Below are positions 1-10,723 of a DNA stretch of 64,000 nt, piece by piece (positions within the stretch are counted from its first letter, which is position 1; each line of letters starts with the position of its first letter). The stretch is taken from assembly GCA_031370005.1 (NCBI GenBank), contig JANMPT010000117.1:24242-88241 (forward strand), in the 5' to 3' direction. Source of the stretch: Bdellovibrionales bacterium. GTDB taxonomy: Bacteria; Bdellovibrionota; Bdellovibrionia; Bdellovibrionales; Bdellovibrionaceae. The position numbers and the translations under genes are program-made. The notes under the pieces were generated by a model that was given only the letters and a program-made list of their open reading frames with translations, ran no database searches and was not told where the DNA came from.

Positions 1-174
1 ATCAACATCGAGAATAACGACATCAAATTTTTTCTCGTCACTGGACTTCACCTTTTCGATTGCATTCAGGCCATCGAAAGCCTCTTCGACTTCAAAACGT
101 GCCGATGAGACGAGCGCCGTCTTAACTGAGAGTCTCAACCCCTGATCGTCATCGACCACTAAAACCCTAAGCAT
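1..174 (-). CDS. Response regulator, N-terminal receiver domain (partial, runs off the window start)
   Basis: Hand translation from the ATG at 174 gives MLRVLVVDDDQGLRLSVKTALVSSARFEVEEAFDGLNAIEKVKSSDEKKFDVVILDVD, with typical receiver motifs (VLVVDDD, A-x-DG, DVVILD). It overlaps the kinase stop codon. Not in the ORF track. Confidence 0.93.
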   Translation of the reverse strand, partial: MLRVLVVDDDQGLRLSVKTALVSSARFEVEEAFDGLNAIEKVKSSDEKKFDVVILDVD

Positions 175-2044
175 GTGACCTCCCCTGTTCCAGAGGCAGT
201 TCTACAGTAAAAGTGCTGCCTTTTCCATAGGTACTTTCTACAAAAATTCTGCCTTGATGTAATTCTGTAAAGTATTTAGCAAGATAGAGCCCGAGCCCAG
301 ATCCTTTTATAGGAGAGCTTTTCGCATTCTTACTCCGAAAAAATTTCATAAAAATATTATTCACTTCATCTTGAGGAATTCCAGGGCCGCAGTCCTCAAC
401 GCGTACGATGACTTTGCCGTCTTTTTCTTTGCTATGGACTCGTACTTGAGACTCTTCAGGGCTGTATTTGATTGCGTTCTCAATCAGGTTCGAAAAGACC
501 TGCTTCATCAGCTCTGGGTCGACTTGAATCGGAAACAGAGGCTCGGATTCAAACTCAATTGGGATGCGTTTTACTTTAGCTAAGAACTCGTGCTTACGAA
601 TCACATCTTTTAAGAGCGAGTTCACATCGCGACTTTGCATATGAAGTTCAACGCCTTGGCTTTCGATTTTTCCATAATTTAAAATTGTATTTATAAACTT
701 TAAAAGGTCATCGCCCGAGTGGCGAATAGTATCTAGAGCCTCTCGTTGTTGCGAGCTCAAGGCTTGAGGGTCTTTTAAAATAACATCCGTCATGCCTTGA
801 ATACGCGCAATTGGTGTTTTCAAATCATGGGACATCATTGAAATAAAATTGCCTTTAAGCTCTTCGACCTGAGAGAGGAGCTTATTTTTTTGGTAGTATT
901 CCCAACTGCGCCGATTCTCAATGATAAGTCGATAGGGAATAAAGAAGTAATAACACAAGAAGATAGCTAAGAGGGGGTGAGCCATCTTGATCCAATATTC
1001 AAATGGCCAAAAGCCAAGGGCGCTCATTGCGATTAAAGTCACGCCAGTCATCGCAAGAATAGTCAGACTGCGGATCGGTTTCATGGTGAAAAGAACGTGA
1101 ACTGTTAAAATCGACGTTAAAATAGTCACTAGGATATTCAGCCACGGAGGGGCTTGGATCGGAGCATTATTCTGAATCAAAGTATCAATCATGTTGGCAT
1201 TTAATTCAACCAGGGTCATCGCCTTGGCATTCGATGAAAAGGGCGTCTTTGCGTAGTCGCGGATAGCTCCGCCATGGTCATTCCCGAGAAGAATTATTTT
1301 ATTTTTAAATTGGCCAGGTAAAAACCGACCATCCATTACATCTTCAAAAGAGGTCCGCGGATAGGAGTTCGTTTTTCGATAACTGATATAGACTTGTTCC
1401 GAGTCAAAGAACCCAAAAAGTCCGTGAATATTTTTTTTTATTTTAATATCAGGGTTCACAAGTCCCGCAATATAGGGTTGGGCCATCTGGCGATCCTGAT
1501 AAGTGATCATCATACGGCGAGTTACTTTATCCTGTGCGAGTACGTCGCCATCGTTTGTACGTGGCCCCGGAAAGATTTCAATGGAGCTTAAGGGCTCAGC
1601 GAGTTTGAGCTTGCCCTCTTCGCCCTTCATCTCGAGATCTTGGCTGATCATGTAGAGATTATTAATTTTTTTTGCTTCCTCCGCGAAAGCCTTTTTTTCC
1701 TCAAGAGTCCCTTGAAGCTCGTCAAGGTTTTGCGTGTAAAGCAAGGCAAGAGGTTCTTCCCTTTCAATCTGCTTAAGAAGCTCCAATTGGTCTTTAGCTG
1801 TTGGAAGACCTTTTAGGCTCTCAACAGTTTTCGAGGTGGTCACGATTGTTTCAATATGTCCAGATGGGGACGGCTTGGGCAACAATCGAATTCGCATATC
1901 ATAGAGCCCGGACTCCCAGGAATCTAGCTTGAGTTGGCTGATAAATACGCCCATCGCACAGGCTAAAACAAGGCGCAGGGCAGAGTATAAAACCCCACCT
2001 TTAAAAAAGCCTGTTGTATGAGTGTGCGACGGAATCGGTGTCAT
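167..2044 (-). CDS. CHASE2-domain membrane sensor histidine kinase
   Basis: N-terminal TM, CHASE2-like periplasmic region (YDMRIRL...FKNKIILLG...VELNANMIDTL), three TMs, H-box SHDLKTP, N-box NLIENAIKY, DCGPGI, GSGLGL. Start moved from 2113 to the ATG at 2044, which lies 1 nt after the stop of the small peptide ORF. Confidence 0.9.
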   Translation of the reverse strand: MTPIPSHTHTTGFFKGGVLYSALRLVLACAMGVFISQLKLDSWESGLYDMRIRLLPKPSPSGHIETIVTTSKTVESLKGLPTAKDQLELLKQIEREEPLALLYTQNLDELQGTLEEKKAFAEEAKKINNLYMISQDLEMKGEEGKLKLAEPLSSIEIFPGPRTNDGDVLAQDKVTRRMMITYQDRQMAQPYIAGLVNPDIKIKKNIHGLFGFFDSEQVYISYRKTNSYPRTSFEDVMDGRFLPGQFKNKIILLGNDHGGAIRDYAKTPFSSNAKAMTLVELNANMIDTLIQNNAPIQAPPWLNILVTILTSILTVHVLFTMKPIRSLTILAMTGVTLIAMSALGFWPFEYWIKMAHPLLAIFLCYYFFIPYRLIIENRRSWEYYQKNKLLSQVEELKGNFISMMSHDLKTPIARIQGMTDVILKDPQALSSQQREALDTIRHSGDDLLKFINTILNYGKIESQGVELHMQSRDVNSLLKDVIRKHEFLAKVKRIPIEFESEPLFPIQVDPELMKQVFSNLIENAIKYSPEESQVRVHSKEKDGKVIVRVEDCGPGIPQDEVNNIFMKFFRSKNAKSSPIKGSGLGLYLAKYFTELHQGRIFVESTYGKGSTFTVELPLEQGRSHA

Positions 2045-2045
2045 G

Positions 2046-2180
2046 CTAGTTGTCAGTTGCCAAGATATCGCCACCGACAGGAGGACATGGGTTGCCACCG
2101 TTGCCGTGACCAAAACTCGCAGTTTGTGTTGTTAGCGGTTTTAGTTTTTTAATGTGTTTTTTCTTGAGTTTTTCCATCAT
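2046..2180 (-). CDS. Putative RiPP precursor peptide, 44 aa (MMEKLKKKHIKKLKPLTTQTASFGHGNGGNPCPPVGGDILATDN)
   Basis: Hand translation. GGGAGAG RBS just upstream of ATGATG. Overlaps the 3' end of the rSAM gene and fills the gap to the kinase start. Basic KHIKKLKPL leader and a Gly/Asn/Pro-rich core with one Cys. Confidence 0.78.
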   Translation of the reverse strand: MMEKLKKKHIKKLKPLTTQTASFGHGNGGNPCPPVGGDILATDN

Positions 2181-3492
2181 CTTCTCTCCCGCGACACTGC
2201 TCATAATAGACCAGCGTTAAAGCCACCATAAATCTTGTTCGCTCACAAAATTGCGAGTTTTTAATATTTTTATTACCTGAACCATGCTTGTGAACAAACA
2301 TACAACCGCCACCGCACAAAAATCTAGCCCAGCAGTTTTCACACTTATTTGCCTCAAGAATTGGCTTTTGATAAGCCTCTAAAGTTTTTTCGTTGAGTTC
2401 AGTGCCTTGACCGACTTGCTCTTTTTTGTCGTTTACATCCCAAGGGCACGTATAGATCTGATTGCGGGCATCGATCATTAAAAAAGATTTTCCCGCACCA
2501 CAGTAGTTTTCTGTCCGTCGCTGTTGATCCAAAGATTGAAAGTGCTGTTCAAAAATTCGAATTTTCCTTAAAGCGCTCTCGCCACCTTTAGTGAAAGCAG
2601 AAGCCGCTAGCTTCGTCATTTGGCTCATGTACTCGACAGTTGCGCGGGGATTGTTCTCAGAGACCGAAAAAGAAAAATCATAACTATCGACATCGAATTT
2701 GGAGTAAAACTCGTAAGCCTTTTCAAGCTCCATGTTATTGCTGTCAAATACGCCATGGATCAAGATATGGCTAAACTCCATTTTGCGAGCGAGGAGCCTT
2801 TCAAGACCAGCAACGATCATTGCTGTGGGGGAAGTGCCATTTTTAGTTGGGCGCATAATATCGTTGATCTCAGGAGGACCATCAAGACTGATGGTTACGG
2901 AGGCTTTCATGCTTGCTAAGATATCGAGGTTTTTATCTGTCAGTAATGTGCCATTGGTGATGATGGTGTAATTCACAGTGCGCTCAGGGGCGACTTCAGC
3001 AACATATTTTGCTATCAAGGCAAGGCCTTCGGCATAAAGCAAGGGCTCTCCGCCTAAGAAGCTGATGTTAAAGCTGACGTTTGGTGGCAAACGATCGAGA
3101 AAAAATTTAAGTTGAGGCAAAGTTTTCTCAATGGAGATCTTGGCAATCGTATCGCCAAAAGTTCCATCTCCGCCGGCAGCGCAGTAATTGCAATGCAGGT
3201 TGCAGATCTGAGTGACGTTCAAAGTGAGAAAGCGAATCACGGAATTGATTTTGCTAATTTTTACATCGGGGTTATTTTCAACATCCCAGGATTTAAGCTC
3301 TGTAAGTGCTTCATTTATTTTTTGCGATTGAATGACTTCTGGGGCAGCAGAGTTGAGTAAAGTCGTAGGAGACATGTTTAGCCAAGTAGACTCAGAAATT
3401 TGCGCCACTTCCATATTGCGCGCGTGGAAAGCCAAAAGCGCTCCCGCTTCCGATTTTAGCGCTAAAATGTCATTATAGCGTCGCAATTCCAT
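2149..3492 (-). CDS. Radical SAM/SPASM domain protein, probable peptide maturase
   Basis: CxxxCxxC motif (CNLHCNYC), GGEPLL, ITNGTLL, ISLDGP. SPASM cysteines: CGAG...YTCPW...CENCWARFLCGGGC...C. The ~85-aa N-terminal extension is compatible with an RRE. Confidence 0.93.
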   Translation of the reverse strand: MELRRYNDILALKSEAGALLAFHARNMEVAQISESTWLNMSPTTLLNSAAPEVIQSQKINEALTELKSWDVENNPDVKISKINSVIRFLTLNVTQICNLHCNYCAAGGDGTFGDTIAKISIEKTLPQLKFFLDRLPPNVSFNISFLGGEPLLYAEGLALIAKYVAEVAPERTVNYTIITNGTLLTDKNLDILASMKASVTISLDGPPEINDIMRPTKNGTSPTAMIVAGLERLLARKMEFSHILIHGVFDSNNMELEKAYEFYSKFDVDSYDFSFSVSENNPRATVEYMSQMTKLAASAFTKGGESALRKIRIFEQHFQSLDQQRRTENYCGAGKSFLMIDARNQIYTCPWDVNDKKEQVGQGTELNEKTLEAYQKPILEANKCENCWARFLCGGGCMFVHKHGSGNKNIKNSQFCERTRFMVALTLVYYEQCRGREDDGKTQEKTH

Positions 3493-3543
3493 TGAGCTTT
3501 CCCCAGTGTCTTTTTGACACTAATAATTCCATGGGCTTAAATG

Positions 3544-3560
3544 TGCAATTAGGGGGCCAG
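3544..3560 (-). promoter_or_regulatory. Sigma-54 (-24/-12) promoter upstream of the rSAM gene
   Basis: Minus strand reads CTGGCCCCCTAATTGCA, i.e. GG-N10-GC with TGGC and TTGCA, about 50 nt before the ATG. Confidence 0.7.
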
Positions 3561-3672
3561 TTTTAATTTTGTCACCACAAATAAAAACTTAATAAAAACA
3601 TATAGTTACATATTCATCTGAAGAAGTAAACCAGGCCTCGGTAGAGCCACAATGTAACTATTTCGTTATTGT

Positions 3673-5391
3673 CTAGAGTTTCAAGCACTCATGGTGGAAG
3701 TCTTTTAGAGCGGCCTCGTCATGGCTGAAGCTCACTAGAATCATCTGCGGGAAGCTTGCGATAAGGTCAAGATAGAGTTCTTTTTCAGTTTCTTTTCCAA
3801 GTGCAGAAGTGGCTTCATCCAAGAAAACTAGTTCGGGTTTTTGCAAGAAAATGCGGGCAATGGCGACTCGTTGTTGTTCGCCCGAAGACAGGCGCATAGA
3901 CCAGTTTTCTTCTTGATCAAGGGCTTGAGCCAAGTGGTTAAGTCGGGTCAGAGTCAAAACTTTTTGATACTCGAGATCACTAAAGAGGCTGCCATCCATC
4001 GGATAAGCCAAGGTCGCACGTAGACTGCCGATGGGTAGATAAGCTTTTTGGGTGAGGGCAAGGCGATGGCTTTCTTTGGGAATTCGCACATGGCCTGAAA
4101 TATAAGGCCAAATGCCATTCATACTCCGAAGCAGAGAAGTTTTTCCTTTGCCGGAGGCGGCCGTGATCAGAATCCGTTTTCCTGGCGTGAGTTGCAAGCT
4201 CAGTGCCGTAAGCAGGCTTTGATGTTCGGGCGTCATCACACTTAAGTTTTCTATTTCATATGAACCCGTAGTTATCTGAACACTTTGTGTGACAGTTTTG
4301 TGGCGAAGTTTACTGTTTTCCTCAAGCGAAAGAAGGAAGCCTCCAAGACGAACGATGACGGAGTGAAGGCGCGCGATCTTAGCATACATATCGACAAAAA
4401 CGGAGACGGATCCTTGAACTTGGCCAAAGGCACTACTGATCTGAAAGAGCTGCCCCAATGTGATTTCACGAGTAAAAACCTTCGGTGAGGCCACAATGAA
4501 TGGAAAAATATATGCTAGCTGACCATAGATATTGGTTGTCACGATAAGCTTCTTCTGACGAGAGATCAATTTCTTGAAATTTCCCACGACCTGAAAGAAC
4601 TTGGTCGAGAGTTTTTGTTTCTCGACGCGTTCACCGTTAAGGAGAGCAATGCTTTCGCTGTTCTCACGAAGTCGCACCAGGAGATAACGGAAGTCAGCTT
4701 CGAGCTTTTGTTGCATAAAATTGATTTTTGAGAGGGGGCTGCCAATTTTATGAACGACCCAGGTGCCAATGACGGCATACAACAGACAGATCCACACCAA
4801 GTAGCGATGAATCTCAATGTCATAACCCATCATATTTGTGAACTTGATTGAGCTTGAAAGTCCCCACAGAATACCAATGAAAGAAACAAAGGTGATGAAC
4901 TCTCGCAAGATTTTTTCTGAAATTTCTAGGCTCAAGTCCGTCAGCTCGTGAATATCATCTGAGAGCCGTTGATCGGGATTGTCATTATTATTGGTGGTGA
5001 TATGCCAGTAGTAGAAGTTTTTTTCTGAAAGCCAGTGGGTGAGATTTTTTTCGGTGACCCATTTCCTCCAATTGATTCCCAGGCTTTGTAGAACATAGTA
5101 CTTGTAAGCCATAATGACCGAATAAGAGAGCGCAATAATGAAAAACCGGCGGAGCTGGTGGAAGAACTCTTCTTTATTGAGATTTTGAAGGGCGTCGTAA
5201 AATGCTTGATTCCAACGATTGAGTAAAACTAGGCTGTAAACCATTCCGAGAATTAATAACAAGGTTAGCAACAGCAGACCCCGCGCCCTCCAACGATTTT
5301 CGGAGCGGGTCCAATATGGAAGCACAAGCTCTTTTAGAACTATTCGGATCGAATGCCATTTCTTGGTGCTTTTCAGCTTTTGCGAGCCCAT
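3673..5391 (-). CDS. ABC transporter, fused permease/ATPase of the SbmA/BacA-YddA (ABCD-like) type
   Basis: WNQAFYDALQ, NPDQRLSDD, EAA-like EADFRYLLVRLRENSESIAL, Walker A variant AASGKGKT, signature LSSGEQQR, Walker B VFLDEATSAL. Confidence 0.9.
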   Translation of the reverse strand: MGSQKLKSTKKWHSIRIVLKELVLPYWTRSENRWRARGLLLLTLLLILGMVYSLVLLNRWNQAFYDALQNLNKEEFFHQLRRFFIIALSYSVIMAYKYYVLQSLGINWRKWVTEKNLTHWLSEKNFYYWHITTNNNDNPDQRLSDDIHELTDLSLEISEKILREFITFVSFIGILWGLSSSIKFTNMMGYDIEIHRYLVWICLLYAVIGTWVVHKIGSPLSKINFMQQKLEADFRYLLVRLRENSESIALLNGERVEKQKLSTKFFQVVGNFKKLISRQKKLIVTTNIYGQLAYIFPFIVASPKVFTREITLGQLFQISSAFGQVQGSVSVFVDMYAKIARLHSVIVRLGGFLLSLEENSKLRHKTVTQSVQITTGSYEIENLSVMTPEHQSLLTALSLQLTPGKRILITAASGKGKTSLLRSMNGIWPYISGHVRIPKESHRLALTQKAYLPIGSLRATLAYPMDGSLFSDLEYQKVLTLTRLNHLAQALDQEENWSMRLSSGEQQRVAIARIFLQKPELVFLDEATSALGKETEKELYLDLIASFPQMILVSFSHDEAALKDFHHECLKL

Positions 5392-5554: not shown

Positions 5555-6535
5555 ATGTCTTTAACCATGAAGTACTGGGGAGTAAGAGGCTCGCTTCCAT
5601 CCTCGCCATCGCCATCCGATTGGACCAACCATATTGAAGGACTGCTTCGCGGGTTTTTCAATGCTGGATTGCGTGATGCTACTCAGGTTTCCAAGTATAT
5701 TGACTCCTTAGGCGCTGCACATCTTGGCGGTTATGGCGCGGCAACAACATGTGTAGAAGTTAAGAGTGCAAAAAATCGTATTATCATCGATGGTGGCAGT
5801 GGTATTCGCTCCTTGAGTGAACAGATCATGAGTGGAAAAGCAGGGACGAGCAAAGGACCTTTTCATATTTTCATGACTCACTTTCACTGGGATCATGTGA
5901 TCGGCTTGCCATTTTTTACTCCTCACTTTGTCCCAGGCGTTCAAATTCATTACTACGCAGTCCAACCAGAGCTTGAGAAATTGATTCGTGGGGTTTTTGC
6001 AAAACCATATTTTCCAGTACCTTTTGAGTCCCTTGCCTCAAAAGTTCATTTCCATATTTTGGAGCCAAGAAAAACGATCGAACTCGATGATATGAAGATT
6101 ACACCCTATCAGCTTGATCATCCAGACCCTTGCTGGGGCTTCCGTGTGGATTGTGGTGGTAAAGCCTATGCACACTGCGTGGATACAGAAGGAACTCGGG
6201 TTTCCCGTGAAGAGTTGGGGAATGATCTACCACTCTATCAAGGGATTGATTTGATGTACTATGATGCTCAATACACCTTTCCAGAGCTCGCAGAAAAAGC
6301 GAACTGGGGTCATAGTGCTGCGCAAGTGGGGCTCGACGTCGCCTTTCGCGAAGGTATCAAGCATGTTCTTTTTGCCCATCACGATCCTGGAGCGACGATT
6401 CAACAGCTCCAAGAGCTAAAACGTCAAACCCTTGAGTATTATGACTGGCGCTTAAGCGTGGCTAAAGAAAATGCCGAGTCACTTAGCTCTGTTCAATGGG
6501 ACTTTGCCTACGAAGGCCTCACTGTAAAACTTTAG
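5555..6535 (+). CDS. MBL-fold metallo-hydrolase
   Basis: YWGVRGS start, THFHWDH metal motif, DAQY, WGHS, HHDP. Confidence 0.88.
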   Translation: MSLTMKYWGVRGSLPSSPSPSDWTNHIEGLLRGFFNAGLRDATQVSKYIDSLGAAHLGGYGAATTCVEVKSAKNRIIIDGGSGIRSLSEQIMSGKAGTSKGPFHIFMTHFHWDHVIGLPFFTPHFVPGVQIHYYAVQPELEKLIRGVFAKPYFPVPFESLASKVHFHILEPRKTIELDDMKITPYQLDHPDPCWGFRVDCGGKAYAHCVDTEGTRVSREELGNDLPLYQGIDLMYYDAQYTFPELAEKANWGHSAAQVGLDVAFREGIKHVLFAHHDPGATIQQLQELKRQTLEYYDWRLSVAKENAESLSSVQWDFAYEGLTVKL

Positions 6536-6659: not shown

Positions 6660-7019
6660 ATGTCTAGTTTATTGAAGTTAAATCGAAAGAGAACCCCACC
6701 CTATGATGGGATTAAAATGGCCTCTGAGCTCGTTCAGAAGCTTGAGTCTGAAATAGCTTTGTATCAGGTTTACCTTTTTGGATCAGCGGCAACTAACGAG
6801 CACACGCTGGATTCGGATTTAGATCTTCTTGTTATTGTTGATGACACTTCTGATATTAAAAAAGTGTATAAAATTGTACAGCGCCCATTTTTTTCTTCAG
6901 TAGCGGTTGATTGGATAGTCAAATCAAAAGCTGAGTTTTCGAAAATGAAAGATATCGGTGGGGTTTGTTTTGTTGCGTTTCACCAAGGTAAGGAAATTAA
7001 TTTAAATGGCTCAAAATAA
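6660..7019 (+). CDS. Minimal nucleotidyltransferase (MNT) antitoxin-like protein
   Basis: YLFGSAA...DSDLDLLVIV motif. Overlaps the downstream HEPN gene. Confidence 0.88.
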   Translation: MSSLLKLNRKRTPPYDGIKMASELVQKLESEIALYQVYLFGSAATNEHTLDSDLDLLVIVDDTSDIKKVYKIVQRPFFSSVAVDWIVKSKAEFSKMKDIGGVCFVAFHQGKEINLNGSK

Positions 7020-7404
7020 GAGCGTTTTATTTAAAAAAGAATACGCGAAAGAACTTTTAAAGATTGCTGTCGGCGATTTGAAAACGGCCAAGGCCCTTAT
7101 TGAATCCCCAGATCCTGGAAGGCCAGAAAATATCCTCTATATGATTCAACAATCAGTAGAGAAGGCCGTGAAAGTGGTCCTTATTTCAAAACAAATTCCA
7201 TTTCCTCTTGTGCATGATTTGGGAATTCTGATTGCTTTGTTGTCGACGGCAGACTACCCCCCAGGGGGATTTGATTTAACCGCATTAAATCCATACTCAA
7301 CAATTCGTCGTTATGAGACTGGGGAAATTCCTTTAGATAACGAAGAAATTCAAGGGGCTTACTTGGCCGCCGAATTAGTTATTGCATGGTCTTCGAAGTA
7401 CTAG
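7006..7404 (+). CDS. HEPN domain protein
   Basis: QQSVEKAVK, HDLGIL and RRYE motifs. Paired with the MNT gene. Confidence 0.85.
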   Translation: MAQNKSVLFKKEYAKELLKIAVGDLKTAKALIESPDPGRPENILYMIQQSVEKAVKVVLISKQIPFPLVHDLGILIALLSTADYPPGGFDLTALNPYSTIRRYETGEIPLDNEEIQGAYLAAELVIAWSSKY

Positions 7405-9760: not shown

Positions 9761-10039
9761 ATGAAATTATCCTCCCAACAAATTCAAGTCTTAGCTGAAA
9801 AAATTCTGAATCAGTGGAAGAAGCAAAATGTTATCGTCTTCAAAGAAGATGAAAAGCTTGTGCTTAATCGAGTGATTGAGCTTATTAAAGGTGATTACGA
9901 TCGCGAAATGGCTCTCGATAGGGATGTCAATGCGATGTTGGATCAATTGGAGAAGAGTAATCCTGGCGAGTTTCAGCGTTTTAAGATGTTTCCAATTTTA
10001 AAACAAAAGCTCGCGAAAGAAAGAAAAGTGATTCTATGA
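9761..10039 (+). CDS. DUF507 family protein
   Basis: MKLS...KQKLAKERKVIL pattern, first of a tandem pair. Confidence 0.7.
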   Translation: MKLSSQQIQVLAEKILNQWKKQNVIVFKEDEKLVLNRVIELIKGDYDREMALDRDVNAMLDQLEKSNPGEFQRFKMFPILKQKLAKERKVIL

Positions 10040-10311
10040 TTATTTCAGGTGATCGTCAAAATCATCTGGCGCATATCGTGACTGATGGTGTTTGGGCTGA
10101 TGATATTGCGGACTTCACGGATGATGATCAAGCCCTGCGCGCAGCGAAAATCGCTATTGCTGAGTTTGTGAAAGAAGATGAGGATCTCAATCAGAGAGCG
10201 CGTGATAAAGTGGCATCCTTAAAGCGCAACGTGATGGAAGGAACCCCTGAGTGGGATGTCATGTACAAAAAATATTACGAAGAGGAAAGAGCTAAACGTG
10301 GCAAAAAGTAA
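10036..10311 (+). CDS. DUF507 family protein
   Basis: DRQNHLAH...EGTPEWDVMYKKYYEEE pattern. ATGA overlap with the previous gene. Confidence 0.75.
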   Translation: MIISGDRQNHLAHIVTDGVWADDIADFTDDDQALRAAKIAIAEFVKEDEDLNQRARDKVASLKRNVMEGTPEWDVMYKKYYEEERAKRGKK

Positions 10312-10723
10312 GAAAAAAACCGGCAAGAAAAAAGTTAAAACAATAAAAAAGCTTAAAAAAGCACCCGTAAAAGCTACTGTGACTAAGACTAAGCTTGTGG
10401 CTAAGGCAGTGAAAAAGATTGATCTCAAAAATTTTGTTACTCCTTTAGATGACCGCGTAATGGTTCAGTTAATTGCTGCAGAAAAAATGACGGCAGGCGG
10501 TCTTTATATCCCAGACACAGCGGTAAATTCTTCTGGGAACCTAGAGGGTTCCGTGGTGGCAGTGGGGCGCGGCCGTCGAAATAAAAAAGGCGATGTTCGG
10601 CCGATGGACTTGAAGGTCGGCGACAAAATTCTTTTTTCAGAGTACTCTGGCTCAAAAATTAAGATTCAAGATCATGACCTTGTCATCCTTCGTGAGGGTG
10701 ATGTGCTTGGTGTGATTGCATAA
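10298..10723 (+). CDS. groES: Co-chaperonin GroES with a Lys-rich N-terminal extension
   Basis: PLDDRV, TAGGLYIPDTA, VVAVGRG, LKVGDKILF, LREGDVLGVI. Likely GTG start at 10298. Confidence 0.9.
   Translation: MAKSKKKTGKKKVKTIKKLKKAPVKATVTKTKLVAKAVKKIDLKNFVTPLDDRVMVQLIAAEKMTAGGLYIPDTAVNSSGNLEGSVVAVGRGRRNKKGDVRPMDLKVGDKILFSEYSGSKIKIQDHDLVILREGDVLGVIA

Follow-up and report, generated by a model that had tools for sequence, protein, structure and literature searches.

Peptide signalling of the agr type is built from a precursor, a protease, a sensor kinase and a LytTR regulator, namely AgrD, AgrB, AgrC and AgrA. Among peptides modified by radical S-adenosylmethionine (rSAM) enzymes, the maturase CteB of the SCIFF/thermocellin system has been described with an open auxiliary cluster I (Aux I) site and with a contact between the leader and its recognition domain (PMC6231123). 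For CteA/CteB expressed in E. coli a Cys32-Thr34 (i,i+2) thioether at C-gamma is reported, earlier assignments having been Cys32-Thr37 (PMC8326336). The window analysed here is a stretch of 64,000 nucleotides (nt) from a Bdellovibrionales bacterium (Bdellovibrionaceae; GCA_031370005.1, contig JANMPT010000117.1, positions 24,242-88,241 of the forward strand), and on its minus strand lie genes for an rSAM enzyme, a small peptide, a CHASE2 sensor kinase and a response regulator. An earlier note had read them as the circuit of an autoinducer belonging to the RiPPs, peptides that are made on the ribosome and modified after translation. The sequence comparisons below support a real RiPP precursor/maturase pair of a new family, and an accessory feedback signal is the role towards which the evidence leans, with caution, for its peptide.

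The precursor and its maturase

The maturase gene (2149..3492, minus strand; 447 amino acids, aa) is orthologous to Bd3357 of the model strain HD100, where the locus is mis-annotated as 'heme biosynthesis' (the rSAM gene), 'hypothetical' and 'zraR'. Its product has a strand-rich N-terminal domain resembling a RiPP recognition element (RRE) and seven invariant SPASM cysteines in the CteB pattern (C331, C349, C384, C387, C393, C397 and C416). The nearest solved relative in the PDB was CteB both by profile (E 3e-49) and by fold (TM-score 0.76-0.78 for an AlphaFold2 (AF2) model of pLDDT 92). The enzyme scored below every curated NCBIfam cut-off (PapB 156.9 of 340 bits, nif11 148 of 519, SCIFF TIGR03974 128.6 of 425), and its family formed a clade of its own outside the SCIFF maturases (support 0.999).

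The precursor gene (2046..2180, minus strand; 44 aa; orthologue of Bd3358) encodes on that strand the leader motif HIKKLKP (2136..2156), predicted to be the RRE-binding strand, and the core Cys32-Pro33-Pro34 (2079..2087), the predicted thioether site. Only this one of 21,467 small open reading frames (ORFs) in the window's own genome combined the leader with a terminal C-x-P, and it is therefore not a chance ORF. The 136 unique precursors have an H-I-K-K-[VIL]-K-P leader, then a linker whose length varies, then a G-x-G-C-x-P core, with the H/F/Y-I/V leader element present in 120. The last 30 or more residues hold a single Cys in 134 of the 136, an invariance that is partly by construction since precursor picking favoured C-x-P and the leader. 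The +2 residue after the Cys is Pro in 129 precursors, Glu in 5 and Val in 2, and five precursors stop at +3, so that +2 is the likely acceptor. At +4, Gly occurs in 58, Arg in 27 and Asp in 5, and the position is absent in 5. A subgroup of precursors (L103, L104, L135, L138 and L142) carries C-P-E instead of C-x-P, which suggests a Cys-Glu link made by the same enzyme family.

None of 11 precursors matched an NCBIfam model, and a PDB search with the peptide was also without a match. No conserved aromatic residue was found at -8 to +8 of the core, and the models for three-residue cyclophanes scored far below cut-off. A KHIK leader is shared with SCIFF precursors, in a SCIFF set that was itself gathered by leader motif and in which 77 of the 80 matches were Cys-rich short peptides; no SCIFF precursor was found in loci L005-L026. 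At three dereplication levels leader distance followed RRE distance with partial r of 0.22, 0.24 and 0.41, while among 300 pseudo-core controls 2, 4 and 0 came that high, and because the leader thus tracks the RRE beyond phylogeny the enzyme-substrate pairing is supported. By analogy, a Cys-S to Pro(+2) side-chain thioether is predicted, with an alpha-carbon link as a possible variant.

The rSAM gene was present in 172 of 182 genomes of the family, including 126 of the 129 of high quality, and in 165 of 301 sampled genomes of the order, a sample weighted towards the window's own family (130 of 301), with fragmented assemblies among the misses. Every one of the 48 positive genomes in a 301-genome sample of the phylum fell inside the order. 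The gene gave one match per genome except in a few fragmented assemblies, and inheritance of the cassette is judged to be near-core, single-copy and vertical. A precursor lay next to the rSAM gene in 140 of the 141 distinct loci counted, the sole miss having 31 nt of room; one further locus, off a contig end, was dropped. Where the contig left room, the kinase stood within 1.2 kb in 137 of 138 rSAM loci, and the regulator was present in 102 of 106. The sole synteny exception is L362 (genome G117), where rSAM and peptide genes diverge from the regulator and the kinase lies further on; the palindromes described below are kept between them and the genes are still clustered. The closest named loci were those of Bdellovibrio sp. 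HCB337 and of Bdellovibrionaceae metagenome-assembled genomes. Among the 80 best loci of an alignment search, 79 were titled Bdellovibrio or Bdellovibrionales/-ota; locus L180, titled Streptomyces griseus, carries a Bdellovibrionales locus (rSAM 47% identity) and is probably a mislabelled bin.

The four co-directional genes with overlapping or 1-nt junctions, as first described for the window, were all seen: rSAM and peptide genes overlap by 32 nt, peptide and kinase meet at TAG-C-ATG, and kinase and regulator overlap by 8 nt. The first of these overlaps is true of the window only, since in same-genus relatives the rSAM stop falls about 10-45 nt before a longer peptide of 51-55 aa; it is a change local to the window's genome. 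The kinase (167..2044, minus strand; 625 aa; orthologue of Bd3359) consists of a transmembrane helix, a periplasmic CHASE2 domain, three further transmembrane helices, HisKA and HATPase, as seen with Pfam (CHASE2 75 bits, cut-off 26) and an AF2 model of pLDDT 83.5. Fold searches with the full kinase model gave matches filled by the cytoplasmic domains, and an Atlas search returned only CHASE2 clusters. A published label of a Bd3359 orthologue as Ras-like, as worded in PMC3526173, does not fit the kinase and was set aside. The window holds the 5' end of the regulator gene (1..174, minus strand), an orthologue of HD100 Bd3360 'zraR' of sigma-54-dependent REC-AAA-helix-turn-helix (HTH) type, whose start is at 174 and which continues beyond the window to 507 aa in its own genome. 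The B. bacteriovorus orthologue shows REC, Sigma54_activat and HTH_8 (Fis HTH) domains and is thus an NtrC-type activator, and the HTH segment is identical in 79 of 81 peptide-linked orthologues.

Promoter, palindrome and expression in prey

The rSAM gene of the window is preceded by a sigma-54 -24/-12 promoter (3544..3560, minus strand; 20.2 bits), with a palindromic upstream activating sequence at -100 (3642..3660; 13.8 bits; weaker copy at 3559-3577) and a further copy in the 5' leader (3504..3522; 17.7 bits; +38 from the sigma-54 site) that may be an auto-repression site. Such a promoter was found before 99 of 124 rSAM-led loci and 12 of 24 kinase-led, peptide-less loci, and in 33 of 796 coding windows. 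The palindrome tgGtGtCA-www-TGaCaCca has its copies around -100 to -120 and between +30 and +45; with a matrix trained on the same promoter regions it was present in 87 of the 99 peptide-linked and all 12 peptide-less ones, as against 3% of shuffles. Out of sample it was found at 26 of 30 orthologues of the extracytoplasmic function (ECF) sigma gene Bd0743 (shuffles 13/300) and, at -84 or -154, at 14 of 27 orthologues of the outer-membrane barrel gene Bd1542 (shuffles 18/270), both genes being assigned via named cluster members and neighbours. In the genome of the named locus L155 the palindrome occurred 15 times compared with 10 in the control, which is too weak alone, and the combined palindrome and promoter pattern gave no match. 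From its sequence the operon is probably positively autoregulated, the nearly invariant activator HTH across the order fits one shared site, and this activator rather than its paralogue described below would bind the palindrome.

At the RpoE-like gene the palindrome keeps one position, directly against the -24 box of a sigma-54 promoter (L371-L400, L462), downstream of an FHA-GGDEF gene that we take to be dgcB, and its occurrence there in most family members checked would make a sigma-54-to-ECF cascade. In B. bacteriovorus YOA24, palindromes were also found at sigma-54 promoters of small secreted hypothetical proteins (L468, L477 and L478; two at -25, one at +50), and these genes are candidate regulon members.

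The named locus L155 clusters with CAE78160-78163 of HD100, that is Bd3357-Bd3360 (UniProt ids confirmed for three). In published HD100 arrays these four genes were up 1.6-, 2.2-, 2.2- and 3.0-fold after 30 min of predation, with flanks at 0.68 and 1.06, and all four belong to the predatosome of 240 genes, about 7% of the total; Bd1542 was up 6.5-fold, Bd1541 2.2-fold and Bd0743 was at 0.69 (PMC2797640). The same array data list no significant increase for the four genes in host-independent growth (rSAM 0.69, peptide 1.08), and the text of that paper names Bd3359 and Bd3360 only as sensor-regulator genes. Proteome tables give Bd3360 at +1.96 log2 at 3 h, falling below its starting level by 6-7 h, and Bd3359 at +0.86 at 3 h (PMC12546842). 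The locus is induced in prey, with a peak at 2-3 h.

RNA contigs of three studies start on L155 at 5001, 5001 and 5040, just behind the promoter at 4967-4983; one covers all four genes and one ends at 9870, past the regulator, in a comparison that leaves out one DNA-like 38-kb contig. Contigs being no proof of a single transcript, they are a weak hint beside the conserved unit and the co-induction in predation, and the view of the genes as one operon is to that extent upheld.

In a pooled transposon sequencing (Tn-seq) table the fitness values W were 0.57-0.80 for rSAM insertions, 2.05-2.45 for kinase insertions and 1.4-1.9 for the flanks, with a local median of 1.23 (46 scored rows, one condition; locus matched by gene order, peptide gene unannotated); the regulator is given as 'ND' and stands outside the essential list of that source (PMC6561027). 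As rSAM insertions scored 0.57-0.80 and the flanks 1.4-1.9, neighbours in the pool did not fully rescue the rSAM mutants.

Possible roles of the peptide

Tentative preference, a little short of even confidence, is given to an older, order-wide and probably autoregulated predation-phase CHASE2 kinase/sigma-54 switch that carries an accessory ranthipeptide-like module feeding back on the kinase. A prey- or envelope-derived cue would activate the kinase, and the phosphorylated activator would bind the palindrome, drive its own sigma-54 promoter and genes such as Bd1542, and damp the RpoE-like Bd0743, for both of which sites and co-expression were seen. The RRE of the maturase would grip the H-I-K-K leader, and the enzyme would link the single Cys to the +2 residue, in most cases Pro, with a C-S bond to the side chain as the likeliest form; here the substrate pairing is well supported. 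In the weakest step, the modified peptide would act in return on the kinase, within a single cell or bdelloplast, and would set the strength or timing of the switch rather than be its sole trigger. It is quite possible, though held with some doubt, that the peptide is an autocrine, rSAM-made Cys-Pro thioether ligand of the CHASE2 kinase, in a loop that amplifies or times the sigma-54 switch for part of the predatosome after commitment to prey. A variable core with a fixed cross-link, inherited vertically beside a sensor, is what a signal may be expected to look like. A strict model of confinement in the bdelloplast was weakened by the finding of enzyme and peptide in Bdellovibrio sp. qaytius (L226), presumably an epibiotic predator.

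Several results weigh against a signal that acts on the kinase. The CHASE2 sensor was present in 225 of the same 301 genomes of the order, 163 with both sensor and rSAM, 62 with the sensor only and 2 with rSAM only. While 163 of the 165 rSAM-positive genomes carry the sensor, a count in favour of the link, 62 of the 225 sensor-positive genomes thus lack the rSAM gene; the earlier note had named as refutation a kinase-regulator pair usually found without rSAM and peptide, and such pairs exist but are not the usual case. Also in its favour, the peptide-less loci that were read contained no precursor-like ORF. In a FastTree phylogeny with 117 peptide-linked kinases, rooted unreliably on a distant paralogue, the 24 peptide-less kinases stood at about nine separate places, and the rSAM tree had similar deep groupings; repeated loss of the cassette would be the simplest reading. 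The sensor was unrelaxed after such loss, as seen in a sensor/cytoplasmic divergence ratio of 2.04 for peptide-less and 2.04 for peptide-linked kinases, conserved sensor columns retained at 0.91 compared with 0.95, and each sensor column lost in at most 4 of 9 lineages. A paralogous pair of sensor kinase and sigma-54 activator (L480:1662-4939, contig C49 of the window's own genome; 70% identity in the AAA domain, similar HTH) has neither rSAM nor peptide, and no sigma-54 site or strong palindrome upstream. Because the sensor is unrelaxed after loss and this peptide-less pair exists, the kinase has or can have another input. The paralogous pair may share or oppose the regulon.

Also the co-variation of core and CHASE2 domain that the earlier note had looked to was not borne out: partial r was 0.17, 0.16 and 0.15, reached by 37, 30 and 66 of 300 pseudo-core controls and not significant. 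The precursor is basic and lacks a signal sequence, no exporter or protease gene is linked to the locus, and no peptidase-ABC fusion was found in five genomes searched, where C39 matches were stand-alone ORFs of about 300 aa in three of the five. The effect of rSAM insertions could be polar, kinase insertions were unimpaired (W 2.05-2.45; PMC6561027), Bd3357 protein rose by a non-significant 0.27 log2 (false discovery rate 0.10) and the proteome tables searched do not list Bd3358 (PMC12546842). On the side of the regulon, a third candidate had no palindrome enrichment (5/30; shuffles 27/300), Bd0655, beside a palindrome site lacking a sigma-54 promoter, was unchanged in expression, and bd0743 is described as constitutive by reverse-transcription PCR (PMC3464611). 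The genome has 10 sigma-54 activator matches, and since they include the peptide-less paralogue with its similar HTH, the palindrome may belong to another activator. Prediction of a complex between the CHASE2 domain and the unmodified peptide gave a score of 0.00, which is no answer and was counted neither way.

A YddA/SbmA-like ABC transporter gene lies directly upstream of the rSAM gene on the same strand (3673-5391, minus). It was set aside as peptide transporter or core part, since it adjoins the rSAM gene only in loci of the window's own genus.

In a somewhat less probable alternative the RiPP module is, like other predatosome genes, one output of the two-component pair; the modified peptide would then have its action elsewhere, be it on prey, on competing predators or as an intracellular factor, and would leave the kinase untouched. 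One promoter serves module and kinase-activator pair, 12 of the 24 peptide-less loci keep promoter and palindrome immediately ahead of the kinase, the sensor is unchanged after cassette loss and the core does not co-vary significantly with it; streptococcal rSAM RiPPs are, in the account of PMC8326336, outputs of quorum systems. The linkage of no exporter, protease or immunity gene speaks against such an output, as do the near-core, single-copy and vertical inheritance, unlike that of an antagonistic effector, and a cassette that lies beside the kinase even in the rearranged locus L362. Even an output-only peptide would leave both the new RiPP family and the regulon in place.

Population quorum sensing as in agr, with a secreted modified peptide as obligatory kinase ligand reporting predator density, is unlikely. 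It would account for the layout of precursor, maturase, kinase and regulator, for the likely autoregulation and for a short, variable, Cys-containing core, and a table in PMC8326336 counts SCIFF ranthipeptides among the quorum-sensing molecules of clostridia; in an exploratory scan the highest core-correlation windows of the kinase also fell in the sensor, at residues ~134-214. Against it stand the kinase kept unrelaxed without the peptide in the 62 genomes, the export route that was not found, the lack of induction of rSAM and peptide genes in host-independent growth, and the disadvantage of rSAM mutants in the pool, where a shared signal should have reached them from other cells. Of the autoinducer circuit proposed at first, the conserved unit, the precursor/maturase pair, the co-induction in predation and probable autoregulation remain, and an obligatory density-sensing autoinducer is what looks unlikely.

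As a question separate from those of feedback, output and density, it is very improbable that the enzyme acts like an anaerobic sulfatase maturase (anSME) and makes formylglycine, and with it an aldehyde peptide, from the Cys of a core resembling C-x-P-x-R: the sulfatase motif is C-x-P-x-R, the B. bacteriovorus core is C-I-P-V-R with +4 Arg in the 27 precursors noted above and anSME is among the PDB matches (E 3.6e-23), but +4 is Gly in 58 of 136 and absent in 5, and the enzyme, which carries an RRE-like domain and stands far nearer to CteB, has neither the additional Cys of Aux I nor an Asp behind the second Aux I Cys (anSME CGMNGTC..CD, here CGAGKS..CPW).

The HD100 genome is said in a 2023 review to show no quorum-sensing systems, and the signal that ends growth inside prey is presented as an open question (PMC10225642). 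In the full-text literature searched, which most subscription papers lie outside, no paper described the peptide or linked it to the kinase. The locus provides candidates for a signal and for a master activator, the latter with a predicted binding site, along with a new rSAM peptide family that probably carries a Cys-Pro link. Should the autocrine reading hold, a CHASE2 sensor would have a first RiPP ligand, the cross-link would be new, and a bacterium said to lack quorum sensing would have a self-signal.

Further along the window, on the plus strand, lie a gene for a hydrolase of the metallo-beta-lactamase fold that is conserved near the locus (5555-6535), a neighbouring gene of that fold in strain 109J (EP01_RS01950) having fitness 'ND' in the Tn-seq table (PMC6561027), two overlapping small ORFs resembling, as judged by eye, a nucleotidyltransferase/HEPN pair (6660-7404), and a GroES-like ORF with a possible lysine-rich N-terminal extension (10256-10723).

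Comparison with known systems

With SCIFF/thermocellin (CteA/CteB) the locus shares a KHIK-type leader, the combination of RRE, radical SAM and seven-Cys SPASM domains, the best PDB match in sequence and fold, and a lineage-wide, housekeeping-like distribution; the i,i+2 thioether and the quorum-sensing role reported there (PMC8326336) would also be parallels. It differs in having one Cys and a C-x-P core instead of six Cys in about 45 residues, in a maturase at 128.6 bits against a cut-off of 425 and outside the SCIFF clade, and in being embedded in a two-component operon under sigma-54 in a Gram-negative predator. The ranthipeptide class as a whole is resembled by the SPASM rSAM enzyme with open Aux I site (seven Cys), related to CteB and PapB, the thioether here being predicted. 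PapA/PapB (freyrasin) and other ranthisynthases have a Cys donor near the C-terminus as here, and PapB is the top NCBIfam match at 156.9 bits; this is below the cut-off of 340, and the C-x3-D repeats are missing here (+4 Asp in 5 of 136).

The streptococcal SHP/Rgg systems likewise place an rSAM RiPP (streptide, NxxcA) under a signalling regulator (PMC8326336). In those systems a separate pheromone and a cytoplasmic receptor have the RiPP as their output, whereas in the present operon the precursor is followed downstream by a co-transcribed membrane kinase and activator. The agr-type layout claimed at the outset holds for the four-part, probably autoregulated operon of precursor, maturase, kinase and regulator and for the short, variable, Cys-containing core. 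It does not extend to the parts, as an rSAM enzyme takes the place of AgrB, a periplasmic CHASE2 sensor that of AgrC and a sigma-54 activator that of the LytTR regulator, no export step is encoded and the kinase is often kept without the peptide. In its working the locus resembles a ranthipeptide module and in its layout agr, and it is a member of neither SCIFF nor agr.

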